Below are positions 25,647 through 30,363 of a DNA stretch of 64,000 nucleotides, piece by piece; position 1 is the first letter of the stretch, and every line of letters begins with the position of its first letter. The stretch covers positions 21,801 to 85,800 of the forward strand of contig JBMOPW010000003.1 of assembly GCA_049322915.1 (NCBI GenBank), written 5' to 3'. A model generated the notes under the pieces. The model was not told the DNA's origin and ran no database searches. It saw nothing but the letters and a program-made list of their open reading frames with translations. This DNA comes from Candidatus Zhuqueibacterota bacterium (GTDB lineage: Bacteria; Zhuqueibacterota; Zhuqueibacteria; Thermofontimicrobiales; Thermofontimicrobiaceae). The translations under genes and the position numbers were made by a program.

Positions 25647-26801
25647 TCATTTAATTTTAAACTGCATCCCGGCCATGATAAAATAGTTATCAAACTGATA
25701 GTAGCTGGCATTGGATTCATTCACCAGGTAACCGCCTTCAAGGGACAGGCCGATGTTTTTAACGCCCCAGTTGATGGCAAAGCTTCGGCTCAACCCGCTC
25801 CAGAAAAGAGCTCGCTGGTCTTTGCGCAGGTCGCCGGATACATCCAAATTTCCTTCCAGATCATAAATCTGGCGGCTGTGATAATTTTTCCAATAATAGT
25901 AGGAGCCTATCTCCCATTTAATATAGGCTGGTAAAAAGTGCGTGAAACTTAAAGAAACCTCATGGCCGCTGTAACCGTACCGATCGTCGAACAATTCATC
26001 TTCAGTGAAAAGGTCTTCGCTGTCCATCACCGTCGCGGAGCCGCTCACCAATCCCGGCTTAAATCGGTTCACATAATTGAAACTGATTGATGTTTTCATG
26101 CCCAGGGATTGCGCCAGTTTCACGTTACTCACCAATTGATCCACCGCGGGCATTCTCGAATAATCCACCACCAGGTTTCTTCCTCTCCCCTGCATCGATT
26201 GCAGCGGGATATAATCTTTCAGGCCGTAGTTTACGGACATCGTGATGGACGTTCCTGTTTGAAAAAACGTATTCATCTGAAAATAGACCAGATGCTCCCA
26301 ATAATTGAATTCCGGTAAATTCGAATAACTCCGGTTATTGATGACGTAACCAACGCGTCCGATCAAATTATGATACATGTAAAATTTTGCATTGACGTAC
26401 GCCTGAATTTTGAAATAATCGAACACATCATAATCATCGCGGCCATCGTGCCAATACCAGTTACCGCCAAAAAAATAGGTCGTTCTATGATTCGAAGAAG
26501 CAGCAATGCCATCGTATCCCAGCGATTGGGTATGGTAGAACCGATCCAAATACTTTTTGAATACGTTTAAATCACCCTGGTAATACAACTGGGATTGCAC
26601 TTTTTCACCCTCGATGACATGGCTCAGGGATAATCCCACATTGTCATTCAAATCCGGCAGTTGTTTGTAGTTATAGAATGAATTTGAATAATAGGACATC
26701 TGCTGTGAAACAGTCACCGATGTCTGAGAATGGGCTGTGACACTGAACAGGGCCACTGTGAATAACATCATTAAATAGGAAAGATACCATTGCCGTTTCA
26801 T
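25647..26801 (-). CDS. Putative outer-membrane beta-barrel protein
   Basis: 384-aa ORF; signal peptide MMLFTVALFSVTAHSQ; alternating aromatic/hydrophobic pattern rich in Y/F/W/N; no specific family assigned. Confidence 0.45.
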   Translation of the reverse strand: MKRQWYLSYLMMLFTVALFSVTAHSQTSVTVSQQMSYYSNSFYNYKQLPDLNDNVGLSLSHVIEGEKVQSQLYYQGDLNVFKKYLDRFYHTQSLGYDGIAASSNHRTTYFFGGNWYWHDGRDDYDVFDYFKIQAYVNAKFYMYHNLIGRVGYVINNRSYSNLPEFNYWEHLVYFQMNTFFQTGTSITMSVNYGLKDYIPLQSMQGRGRNLVVDYSRMPAVDQLVSNVKLAQSLGMKTSISFNYVNRFKPGLVSGSATVMDSEDLFTEDELFDDRYGYSGHEVSLSFTHFLPAYIKWEIGSYYYWKNYHSRQIYDLEGNLDVSGDLRKDQRALFWSGLSRSFAINWGVKNIGLSLEGGYLVNESNASYYQFDNYFIMAGMQFKIK

Positions 26802-26830
26802 TTTATCACCTCTATGCTATTTCTAACCGG

Positions 26831-26889
26831 GGAAAAAACAAAAGCAGTGACACATTTTATTGGAATCAGGATGTAGTGCCACTGCTTTT
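26831..26889 (-). terminator. Candidate intrinsic terminator after the Ca-binding repeat gene
   Basis: 10-bp stem aaaagcagtg(26840-26849)/cactgctttt(26880-26889), followed on the minus strand by gttttttcc. Confidence 0.45.
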
Positions 26890-26916
26890 GCAACACGTGA
26901 TTTGCTACAAAGAGAA

Positions 26917-27408
26917 TTACTTACCGGAAGCTTTCAGTTGTTTCTGTGCACCTTTGGGGCCTGTTCCGTCGCATACGCCGGTTCCACCATCAACGCCCAG
27001 CTTGCTTCCTCCGAAGCCCAGTTTTTGGCTGTTGAGTCGGTTCAATGCTTTCTGACCATATTTGTTGCCGGTACCATCCTGGGGTTTCACATAATCGGGA
27101 TCCTGGCAATTTGGGATACCATCGCCATCCGCATCCTGCATGCGATCATTGATGCCATCGCCATCTTCATCGATGAAGCCAAAGCGTTTGCCCTGGTCCG
27201 GGTTGACCGGAACATAGTCAGGATCCTGACCATTGGGGATACCGTCGCCATCGCTGTCCGGGGCGTTGTCATTATAGCCGTCCCCGTTTTCATCGACAAA
27301 ACCGATTCCGTGATTCACGGTTTGAGCATAGGTGTTGCCGCTGTAGAACGCGAATGTGAGTACTGCAACCGCGAAGGCTGCGATCGAGAGTTTCAATAAG
27401 TGTTTCAT
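26917..27408 (-). CDS. Secreted calcium-binding protein with thrombospondin type-3-like Asp-rich repeats
   Basis: Start MKHLLKLSIAAFAVAVLTFA (signal peptide) with GGAGG RBS; two copies of DxDGDGIPN(G/C)QDPDYV; upstream extension in the track is discounted. Confidence 0.7.
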   Translation of the reverse strand: MKHLLKLSIAAFAVAVLTFAFYSGNTYAQTVNHGIGFVDENGDGYNDNAPDSDGDGIPNGQDPDYVPVNPDQGKRFGFIDEDGDGINDRMQDADGDGIPNCQDPDYVKPQDGTGNKYGQKALNRLNSQKLGFGGSKLGVDGGTGVCDGTGPKGAQKQLKASGK

Positions 27409-27738
27409 GGTAAACCTCCAAAAAAGTGTAGTGAATGATGATGATGATTTAGTTACTTTATTTTCAATTTCACATCTGTTCAAGCAACTGACGTGCCACT
27501 TTTTATTACACCTACTTAACTTAATGTAATTTCAAATAGCTAAATTAAATTTCGATTTTTTAACTTTGCTCCGTTCCACAAGTTAATTCGACCTGATAGT
27601 CGAATTTGTCGACCATTTTGTTTTGTCGGACAATGGAAACGATGTGAATTTGGGATATTCTGATTTCGGAAGAGATAGAAACATCCTCGAAGGAATGAGC
27701 GCAGGGTGAATATTTAATTCGATATTCATAAAAATAGA

Positions 27739-27767
27739 TTGACACTTTCAGAATTCTTTGCTATATT
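27739..27767 (+). promoter_or_regulatory. Consensus sigma70-type promoter (TTGACA-N17-TATATT) for the ArsR-family operon
   Basis: -35 at 27739-27744, -10 at 27762-27767, about 40 nt upstream of ATG 27809. Confidence 0.55.
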
Positions 27768-27808
27768 TGCTTCGACAATTATCGAACCAATTCACGGAGA
27801 ATCATTAT

Positions 27809-28483
27809 ATGAACGTCGATGAGAGCATACAAATCATGAAAGCCCTGGCGGACAGTTCGCGATTGATGATTGTGAACTCTCTCATGGAGAAGGCGCAATG
27901 CGTTGAGGAGTTAGCCGAGCGATTCAATCTGGCAGCGTCCACTGTGTCGTTCCATCTCAAAAAGCTCGAGAATGCGCGCTTGCTCCACAAAGAGAAAAGG
28001 CAGTACTATGTTTTTTTCTCGCTCAATCCTGAAATTTTTACATCCACCCTGCAACAGCTCATTTCATTCGAGAACATCGGGAAGTACGTGCAAGAAGAAC
28101 GCATTCTAAAATATAAGGAGAAAGTGATTCATACGTTTTTTGAAAAAGGCAAACTGCGTCGATTGCCTTCTCAGCACAAGAAGCGCTGGATTGTACTGGA
28201 GCAGATCGCACAGAGATTCGAGACAGGAAAAGAATACAGTGAGGCCGACGTCAACGCGACGATTTCCACGGTGTTTGATGATTACTGCTCCATCCGCAGG
28301 GAACTGGTTGACGAAGGAATCATGGAGCGCGACGGGCAGCGCTACCGACTCTCCGAGCGAAAATTTGATGAATCGCCAAAACTTCGTCCCAATAGCCTGC
28401 AACATAGTTATCAGCAAAGTATAAGTCACCGTTCCCGACCGGGCAAAACGACGAAAGGAGTTGAGTCGAATGATAGATCGTAA
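27809..28483 (+). CDS. ArsR/SmtB-family HTH regulator fused to a DUF2087-type C-terminal domain
   Basis: N-terminal winged helix (ALADSSRLMIVNSLMEKAQCVEELAERFNLAASTVSFHLKKLENARLL); GGAG RBS; start taken at ATG 27809 rather than the track TTG. Confidence 0.8.
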   Translation: MNVDESIQIMKALADSSRLMIVNSLMEKAQCVEELAERFNLAASTVSFHLKKLENARLLHKEKRQYYVFFSLNPEIFTSTLQQLISFENIGKYVQEERILKYKEKVIHTFFEKGKLRRLPSQHKKRWIVLEQIAQRFETGKEYSEADVNATISTVFDDYCSIRRELVDEGIMERDGQRYRLSERKFDESPKLRPNSLQHSYQQSISHRSRPGKTTKGVESNDRS

Positions 28484-28823
28484 ACAGGCCAGGCAGCATT
28501 ACAAGCAAACGCCCCGACCCGCCGGGGTTATTCTGATCAAAAATTTAGTCAATGGAAAAATGTTCATCGACAGCAGTCCCAATCTGAACGTCGCTTTTAA
28601 CAAGCACAAAGCCCAACTCAAATTCGGTTCGCACCGGAATCAACGGTTGCAGCAGGATTGGAACCAGTTCGGTCCGGACAATTTTTCATTCGAAATTCTG
28701 GAACAATTGAAACTGCAGGAAGACGTCAATTACAATTACACCGATGATCTTAAAATTTTGCGCCAGATCTGGCTGGATAAATTGCAGCCCTTTGACGACA
28801 GGGGATACAATAAAAAAACATGA
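28470..28823 (+). CDS. Small GIY-YIG nuclease-like domain protein with degenerate catalytic motifs
   Basis: Aligns by eye to the I-TevI/Seg-type GIY-YIG core (GVILIKNLVNGKMFIDSS...NKH...FEILEQ...GYN) but has GVI for GIY, FID for YVG, and A at the conserved Arg position; overlaps ArsR gene end by 14 nt; AAAGGAG RBS. Confidence 0.5.
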   Translation: MIDRKQARQHYKQTPRPAGVILIKNLVNGKMFIDSSPNLNVAFNKHKAQLKFGSHRNQRLQQDWNQFGPDNFSFEILEQLKLQEDVNYNYTDDLKILRQIWLDKLQPFDDRGYNKKT

Positions 28824-29005
28824 TTGAACCATTGCAGACCGAATGGCTGGCCCGACAAATGCCGATCCAGCCATCTCAATATCCCCGATGTCTTCCACCA
28901 CGCTTTTACTGAAATAATCTGCACCGCTGCGGACTGATGCATACATGCCCCTCATTTTCCCGCCGGCCTGACCGCTGTATTTTTTTAATCAGAAAAAAAA
29001 TTCCC

Positions 29006-29033
29006 TTGACTTTTTGAAATATTCTTATATATT
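29006..29033 (+). promoter_or_regulatory. Sigma70-like promoter (TTGACT-N16-TATATT) upstream of the GntR gene
   Basis: Read from sequence about 70 nt upstream of ATG 29102. Confidence 0.45.
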
Positions 29034-29101
29034 ATTATTGTACTATTCAAATAGTACAATAATCATCTAACACAAAAATCGTCTTTTGAGAGGGATCTAT
29101 T

Positions 29102-29482
29102 ATGATTGATTTTAAATTGGATCCGAAAAGCGGCGTTCCTTTTTATCGCCAGATCATCGACCAGATTCGCTTTGGGATTGCCACCGGCAGTCTCACCGTG
29201 GGCGAGCAGTTGCCCACCTCGCGGGCGCTGGCAGTGCAATTGAAAGTGAATTTGAACACAGTGACAAAGGCATACAAGGAACTGGAAATCCAGAAGATTT
29301 TGGAGACGCAACAGGGCACAGGCACATTCATTGGCTCTGTCAAAATTCAAATCGCCGCCAAAGAGCGCCAGGGAAAATTGGAAAGTATCTGCGCCGAATT
29401 TTCAAATATAGCATCCAGCTATGGTTTCAGCATCGATGAGCTAATTGACCAATTAAATAAAAGTAAAGGAGTGCAAAAATGA
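29102..29482 (+). CDS. GntR-family transcriptional regulator (short YtrA-like subfamily)
   Basis: 126-aa ORF; HTH PFYRQIIDQIRFGIATGSLTVGEQLPTSRALAVQLKVNLNTVTKAYKELE with short C-terminal helix. Confidence 0.85.
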   Translation: MIDFKLDPKSGVPFYRQIIDQIRFGIATGSLTVGEQLPTSRALAVQLKVNLNTVTKAYKELEIQKILETQQGTGTFIGSVKIQIAAKERQGKLESICAEFSNIASSYGFSIDELIDQLNKSKGVQK

Positions 29483-30363
29483 ATCTCAGTATTCAGCAAA
29501 AAAACATGTTCAATCCAATCGCATTGACCATTTTTAGCCTCGTCATTCTGATCGATGCCCTTCTCGTTGTGTTCGATATCATCTCGCTCCCGGTCAGCTT
29601 TGCCGGGGTTGTGTTAGCCTCTTTTTTAGCAGCAACCATTAAAATCGCTGACCAATGGGAAAAGGCCGTGGTGTTGCGCATGGGTAAGTTCATTGGTTTG
29701 AGGGGGCCCGGGCCGTTTTTCATCATCCCAATTCTCGACCGCGTGGATAATTACATTGACCAGCGCGTGCGAGTCACCGATTTTAAAGCAGAGGAGACGC
29801 TGACCAAAGATACCGTGCCGGTGAATGTTGATGCTGTTGTTTACTGGATGGTTTGGGATGTGGAAAAGGCGGCGCTGGAAGTTCAGGAATATACCAGCGC
29901 AGTGGCCTACATTGCTCTGACAGGCTTGCGCGACATTATCGGCAAACATGAATTGGCGGACTTGCTGCAGAATCGGGAAAAGATAGCCGAGGCATTGCAG
30001 ACCACACTCGATGAGCACACCAATCCGTGGGGAATTACCTGCCAGAATGTGGGCATCAAAGACATTGTCATCCCTGCGGCATTGGCCGATGCCATGAGTA
30101 AACAGGCTCAGGCTGAGCGGGAGCGGCAGGCCAGAATTATTCTGGGAACCGCTGAGACCGAAATCTCAGAAAAATTCAAAATCGCCAGCCAGAACTATCA
30201 GAACAATCCTGTGGCGCTTCAACTGCGCGGCATGAACATGCTCTTCGAAGGATTGAAGGAAAAAGGCTCACTGATTATCGTCCCTAGTTCGGCGCTGGAG
30301 TCCATGAATTTAGGCGCTATTGGCGGACTTTCCGCGCTGGCGAGGACAGAAGCTGAGAAGTAA
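29479..30363 (+). CDS. SPFH/band-7 (stomatin/prohibitin-like) membrane protein
   Basis: 294-aa ORF; N-terminal TM helices then band-7 core (VVLRMGKFIGLRGPGPFFIIPILDRV...); AAGGAG RBS; ATGA overlap with GntR stop. Confidence 0.85.
   Translation: MNLSIQQKNMFNPIALTIFSLVILIDALLVVFDIISLPVSFAGVVLASFLAATIKIADQWEKAVVLRMGKFIGLRGPGPFFIIPILDRVDNYIDQRVRVTDFKAEETLTKDTVPVNVDAVVYWMVWDVEKAALEVQEYTSAVAYIALTGLRDIIGKHELADLLQNREKIAEALQTTLDEHTNPWGITCQNVGIKDIVIPAALADAMSKQAQAERERQARIILGTAETEISEKFKIASQNYQNNPVALQLRGMNMLFEGLKEKGSLIIVPSSALESMNLGAIGGLSALARTEAEK

Follow-up and report, generated by a model that had tools for sequence, protein, structure and literature searches.

The locus considered here raises the question of why a gene for a small ArsR-type regulator overlaps a gene for what looks like a nuclease without the residues needed for catalysis. 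Answering it requires knowing what the two proteins are, how their genes are expressed, and whether their relatives keep them together.

Two overlapping genes and their translation

The two genes lie next to each other within a 64-kb window, by which we mean the whole 64,000-nucleotide stretch of DNA that was analysed. Their features are as follows.

27809..28483, plus strand: gene 1 (ORF1), 224 amino acids, with the ATG at 27809 and the TAA at 28481-28483; the product comprises an ArsR/SmtB-type winged helix (residues 3-72), a long helix (90-110), a DUF2087 domain of predicted winged-helix topology (115-181) and a disordered tail
28151..28348, plus strand: DUF2087 domain of gene 1 (residues 115-180; PF09860, E 2.7e-25)
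28454..28460, plus strand: Shine-Dalgarno sequence AAAGGAG of gene 2, within the end of gene 1, read from the sequence, 9 nt before the ATG
28470..28823, plus strand: gene 2 (ORF2), 117 amino acids, with a basic N-terminal helix (residues 4-13, including Y11-K12) and, at residues 19-114, an I-TevI-like GIY-YIG fold

Gene 1 encodes an ArsR-DUF2087 regulator, as a first-pass annotation of this DNA had proposed. Pfam HTH_5/ArsR matches residues 15-61 with an E value of 4e-14, so an ArsR-type winged helix-turn-helix is present, and the DUF2087 match scores 88.7 bits, above the gathering cut-off of 22.4. AlphaFold-type structure prediction was run on the products of both genes as single chains. The predicted topology of the DUF2087 domain, helix-strand-helix-helix-strand-strand, is that of a winged helix.

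The start of ORF2 overlaps the end of ORF1 by exactly 14 nt, and gene 2 has its own AAAGGAG ribosome-binding site; both features had been pointed out before and are correct. Gene 2 uses the +1 frame, no slippery motif occurs in the overlap, and the 9-nt spacing between Shine-Dalgarno sequence and ATG fits initiation. The GGAG core and its spacing are kept in two related contigs (L241 and L242). Translation of gene 2 begins from a ribosome-binding site of its own, located within the 3' end of gene 1. A programmed frameshift leading to a fused protein was considered and rejected, and coupled initiation is preferred. The split arrangement is also kept in L241 and L242, with differing junction details, and in L242 a stop codon immediately precedes the ATG of gene 2.

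Two mundane readings of the locus can be weighed at this point. The first is an ordinary ArsR/SmtB metal sensor with an incidental downstream gene, which would suit both the match of gene 1 to the NCBIfam model 'metalloregulator ArsR/SmtB' above the model cut-off and the RND/CzcB efflux cluster found upstream of the gene pair in L242. However, no Cys/His cluster was seen in the winged helix-turn-helix or in helix 90-110 when the invariant columns of 28 gene-1 homologues were inspected by eye, without alignment to reference sensors; the only Cys or His residues in these columns are C160, within DUF2087, and H49, in the recognition helix. No conserved metal-resistance gene lies nearby. The second is a frameshifted pseudogene of a fused gene, since relatives are mostly fused and the split could be a frameshift. 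This is contradicted by the split form with its own conserved Shine-Dalgarno sequence and ATG in 24 of 75 relatives, by its occurrence in three related genomes with different junctions, by the lack of a slippery site, and by dN/dS values below 0.2 for both gene 1 and gene 2. For gene 2 compared with L241 the value is 0.13, which indicates that the gene is maintained by purifying selection. We consider the chance that either the metal-sensor or the pseudogene reading is right to be close to negligible.

Gene 2 encodes a GIY-YIG protein whose catalytic site is degenerate

The first-pass annotation had judged gene 2, by eye, to be collinear with the GIY-YIG core of I-TevI/Seg-type enzymes, and had proposed searches with GIY-YIG and DUF2087 profiles as a check. 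Such searches found both relationships significant, and the collinearity holds. A profile of the gene-2 family matches the I-TevI catalytic domain (1LN0/1MK0) with an E value of 9e-14, fused relatives exceed the cut-off of Pfam PF01541 (GIY-YIG), and NCBIfam TIGR01453 matches the gene 2 protein itself at E 2.2e-12, below that model's own cut-off. The AlphaFold model (pLDDT 89.4) contains strands at residues 19-25, 31-36 and 72-79 and helices at 39-52, 58-67 and 91-105, with a beta-beta-alpha-alpha-beta-alpha core and the GIY-YIG hairpin. [quoted passage not shown] We conclude that the gene 2 product is a genuine I-TevI-like GIY-YIG fold. The protein ends 3 residues past the GYN motif, and viral relatives (n=56) carry extra DNA-binding extensions of 80-250 amino acids. 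The conserved signature peculiar to the gene-2 family consists of Y11-K12, N44, D63, L97 and Q106. We note that the N-terminal helix (residues 4-13) is family-specific and basic.

Four of the five catalytic residues are gone from gene 2 (I21, F32, A42 and R98), and N114 is kept. The GIY tyrosine, Y6 in I-TevI, is replaced by I21, at a position occupied by Phe in 56 and Tyr in 51 of 115 stand-alone relatives. The YIG tyrosine, Y17 in I-TevI, is replaced by F32; stand-alone relatives have Leu (55/115), Phe (49/115) or Tyr (8/115) there. R27 of I-TevI corresponds to A42, a variable position; Arg is found there in 19 of the 115 stand-alone relatives and in only 2 of the 70 fused ones. E75 of I-TevI aligns with R98, where 108 of 115 family members (94%) have Glu; this part of the alignment is anchored on W78/W101, L82/L105 and the GYN motif. 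The structural asparagine, N90 in I-TevI, is retained as N114. Applied to the viral relatives, the same alignment method finds both tyrosines and the arginine in 56/56 sequences each and the glutamate in 52/56. We note that the deposited structures of the I-TevI catalytic domain have Ala at R27 or at E75.

The alignment thus bears out the substitutions reported earlier for both tyrosines (GVI and FID) and for the arginine (Ala). The accompanying statement that the downstream Glu and Asn are retained is right for Asn and wrong for Glu. The Glu noticed earlier is residue E75 in the numbering of gene 2 itself; it belongs to the linker strand FSFEIL, beside S59 of I-TevI, and is non-catalytic. The reading of gene 2 as a GIY-YIG protein whose active site is disabled is therefore confirmed, and because the catalytic Glu is also gone, the site is more degenerate than had been stated.

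[quoted passage not shown] In gene 2, neither the general-base Tyr nor the second Tyr remains, and the invariant Arg and the metal-binding Glu are missing too; its product would therefore not cut DNA. As judged from the alignment, the missing Arg and second Tyr are a family-wide trait and not peculiar to gene 2. Glu, Asn and His40 are kept across the family (n=115), which leaves room for metal or phosphate binding, or residual chemistry, in relatives though not in gene 2 itself. The first Tyr is often kept as well. RefSeq labels such pairs 'DUF2087 domain-containing protein' and 'GIY-YIG nuclease family protein', and the second label is probably misleading for the gene-2 subfamily.

The promoter contains two operator-like sites

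The region upstream of gene 1 contains the following elements.

27718..27733, plus strand: O1, operator-like site TTCGATATTCATAAAA, directly adjoining the -35 box and 53 nt upstream of O2
27739..27767, plus strand: sigma-70-like promoter, with TTGACA at 27739-27744, a 17-nt spacer, TATATT at 27762-27767 and TG before the -10 box
27771..27786, plus strand: O2, putative main operator TTCGAcaattaTCGAA, a palindrome without mismatches that follows the -10 box and precedes the gene 1 ribosome-binding site
27796..27799, plus strand: Shine-Dalgarno sequence GGAG of gene 1, read from the sequence, 9 nt before the ATG

The promoter agrees with 11 of 12 positions of the sigma-70 consensus, which may not be the consensus of Zhuqueibacterota. 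O2 has the form TTCGA-N6-TCGAA, just downstream of the -10 box, and is the sole perfect copy in the 64-kb window, where no second perfect operator or regulon was found. Among 71 promoters of relatives, 54 contain the palindrome in perfect form and 61 contain it with no more than one mismatch, and it invariably precedes the ATG by 6-22 nt. Over 276 kb of loci, 54 of the 58 occurrences of the palindrome are at the O2 position, and in divergent arrangements the palindrome sits in the common intergenic region. The O1 half-site TTCGA is found 51-56 nt upstream of O2 in 48/61 relatives, and a TTGAC box 30-34 nt upstream of O2 in ~50/61. O1 is itself a perfect TTCGA-N6-TCGAA palindrome in two relatives (L180 and L203), and it is conserved in L241 and L242, in which the -35 and -10 hexamers are invariant and the spacer varies. 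This two-site promoter layout recurs in 61 of 71 promoters of relatives, from different phyla. An Rfam search of positions 26500-29500 (E <= 0.1) found no RNA element in the leader or overlap and no intron match.

The palindromes could also be read as cleavage targets, with the winged-helix protein directing the GIY-YIG subunit to TTCGA palindromes as an active site-specific nuclease of a homing- or restriction-like kind. The architecture, a nuclease domain combined with a sequence-specific DNA-binding domain, is like that of homing endonucleases, and the residues retained by the family would be in line with activity. The second Tyr is also replaceable, as seen in Hpy188I, which has Lys in its place (PMC3045582). 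However, the Arg that is 'invariant' in active enzymes is missing family-wide, and gene 2 is also without the general-base Tyr and the metal-binding Glu. The module's own promoter would be the only perfect target in 64 kb, and there is no linked gene for self-protection, methyltransferase or other. We consider an active nuclease highly improbable.

The two genes are fused, adjacent or separate in relatives

A survey of the co-occurrence of the two genes, which the first-pass annotation had proposed, covered 75 informative metagenome loci of gene-1 relatives. The pair or a fusion was found in ~92% of them, with the GIY-YIG-like domain fused in frame in 45/75 and encoded by the next gene in 24/75. 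Among the closest gene-1 homologues, 70 of 120 are fusions of 295-366 amino acids. The order winged helix-turn-helix, DUF2087, GIY-YIG is found here on adjacent co-directional genes. DUF2087 is a constant fusion partner, present in 37 of 42 multidomain proteins with this GIY-like domain, and the N-terminal helix-turn-helix varies among them (ArsR in 19 and LuxR/GerE in 3 of the 42). The CDD model cd10451, 'GIY-YIG_LuxR_like', is presumably related to fusion proteins of this wHTH-COG3860-GIY-YIG kind. The gene pair represents, in split form, a regulator family that is widespread and has been noticed before: 143 clusters (50% identity) match the family profile at E <= 1e-30, at least 580 species genomes encode relatives, and the family spans many phyla. 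Cultured carriers include Priestia and Peribacillus, with relatives on plasmids, as well as Heliobacterium mobile and Brevibacillus dissolubilis; WP_205664479.1 of Priestia megaterium is one of the fused orthologues. In-frame fusions, near-obligate adjacency in relatives and purifying selection support the earlier suggestion that the function of gene 2 is linked to that of the regulator.

The relatives of gene 2 are distributed differently. In species-representative genomes, 59 of 79 close relatives stand alone, with no DUF2087 gene or palindrome within 4 kb, and therefore the GIY-like protein evidently can work without an adjacent repressor. The palindrome is found upstream of none of the orphan GIY-like genes (0/59), and trans-regulation of orphans by the same operator was rejected. 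That most close gene-2 relatives are orphans in varied neighbourhoods, without regulator or operator, fits a reading in which gene 1 is a dedicated autorepressor and gene 2 a lone non-catalytic factor that binds nucleic acid or protein and forms no complex with the repressor. The basic character of the gene 2 protein (pI 9.65; N-terminal half about +10) points in the same direction. However, most close relatives of gene 1 are in-frame fusions, DUF2087 is a near-constant fusion partner, and without some joint action it would be difficult to account for covalent linkage in hundreds of lineages. We regard two independently acting proteins as unlikely, with an appreciable chance of being right all the same.

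Genomic context

The ten neighbouring ORFs searched against Pfam include RpiR, M23 peptidase, methyltransferase, GntR, SPFH and M14 peptidase genes, and no integrase or transposase. The GC content of the module is 44.8%, compared with 50.0 ± 5.8% for 1.1-kb windows of the 64-kb window, and so within 1 SD. There are no paralogues of the module in the 64-kb window, and clustering of neighbours at 80 gene-2 and 80 gene-1 loci found no recurrent third gene, nothing but the pair itself. PADLOC returned only generic winged-helix (Csa3/CasR) and generic homing-endonuclease matches, with no toxin or defence model, and PHROGs returned homing-endonuclease families only. A defence system was rejected because of these generic matches, and a mobile island or addiction context because of the ordinary neighbours and unremarkable GC content.

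These results bear on the earlier proposal of an addiction-like module inside an AT-richer segment. The difference in GC content is marginal and no outlier, and neither mobile-element genes nor a toxin or defence match supports such a module. A toxin-antitoxin-like cassette, with gene 1 as antitoxin and autorepressor and gene 2 as toxin and co-repressor, would nevertheless be consistent with the gene order (small DNA-binding protein first), the overlapping and translationally coupled genes, and the promoter with paired operators and presumably tight autoregulation. The cassette is also self-contained and has variable neighbourhoods, and a plasmid collection contains relatives on Bacillaceae plasmids, distant ones only (25-43% identity). 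On the other side, the nuclease active site of gene 2 is destroyed, no mobile-element genes lie near the pair, and model matches are generic helix-turn-helix or homing endonuclease ones with no toxin family. The predominance of single fused chains and the many lone GIY-like genes make a poor fit to a toxin-antitoxin pair. We therefore consider a toxin-antitoxin cassette improbable.

Proposed mechanism

The reading that we prefer, with slightly more confidence than doubt, is that the two genes form a self-contained operon that regulates itself, with the second gene supplying a non-catalytic partner subunit for the repressor. The gene pair would represent, as two polypeptides, the three-domain protein of most relatives (winged helix-turn-helix, DUF2087 and C-terminal GIY-YIG). 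Judging from the conserved anatomy of the promoter, a dimer of the gene 1 protein would bind TTCGA-N6-TCGAA downstream of the -10 box, and the protein may also bind the related site about 5 helical turns upstream, beside the -35 box. Occupation of O1 and O2 would repress the operon's own promoter. The gene 2 protein may dock on the DUF2087 domain of the repressor as a non-catalytic subunit, a step that we infer from the fused orthologues only. When docked, it could modulate operator occupancy, for example as a bridge between the two operator-bound dimers, through further contacts with DNA or in response to a signal.

The conserved dual-operator promoter offers an immediate and cheap experimental handle. 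The natural split and fused forms provide a ready test of a dead nuclease domain as co-repressor.

Comparison with known systems

The pairing of the regulator with a GIY-YIG domain is not new. A fusion of winged helix-turn-helix, COG3860 (which is DUF2087) and GIY-YIG was described in 2006 in Symbiobacterium thermophilum (GI 51893458; Dunin-Horkawicz et al., PMC1564403). Those proteins have the same three domains in the same order, and in their GIY-YIG part they most resemble I-TevI-type homing endonucleases. In contrast, two translationally coupled genes are found here, and the N-terminal helix-turn-helix is ArsR-type, not a 'LuxR module'. The 2006 paper says nothing about a loss of catalytic residues, about operators or about function (PMC1564403). 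A literature search for DUF2087, COG3860 and GIY-YIG with ArsR found only this mention and a paper on BtmL, and no experimental work on the family.

BtmL of Streptomyces scabies is a DUF2087 modulator of the expression of the bottromycin precursor gene (PMC7113386). Like gene 1, it carries DUF2087 after an ArsR-like N-terminal part, and it influences how one specific gene is transcribed (PMC7113386). It differs in belonging to a biosynthetic cluster, with no GIY-YIG partner described and no canonical winged helix-turn-helix detected. Compared with the ArsR/SmtB metalloregulators (CzrA, SmtB, CadC and ArsR), gene 1 has no obvious conserved metal-ligand set by eye, an extra DUF2087 domain, a GIY-like partner, and no metal-resistance genes under its control.

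I-TevI, from the td intron of phage T4, is the best structural and sequence match of the gene 2 protein. It is a homing endonuclease that also represses its own promoter (PMC3384342). However, I-TevI has all catalytic residues and a C-terminal DNA-binding domain on the same chain, and it is intron-encoded and mobile, whereas DNA binding here would come from unrelated winged helices, N-terminal to the GIY-YIG domain or on a chain of their own, and the gene pair is chromosomal with ordinary neighbours. Gene 2 also departs from the I-TevI/Seg type in that it has no intron, phage or mobile-element location and ends right after GYN.

A functional analogy is offered by WhiA/DUF199, in which a non-catalytic homing-endonuclease fold is tethered to a helix-turn-helix and acts in gene regulation (PMC3384342). 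The fold of WhiA is LAGLIDADG and not GIY-YIG, so there is no homology and the likeness is one of analogy. We tentatively suggest, at somewhat less than even confidence, that the family is a GIY-YIG counterpart of WhiA, in which a dead nuclease domain serves as the bridging or sensing subunit of a two-operator, horizontally spreading, self-regulated cassette. If this is true, GIY-YIG would join the domesticated homing-endonuclease folds in gene regulation, for which WhiA and SMAD are the precedents (PMC3384342).

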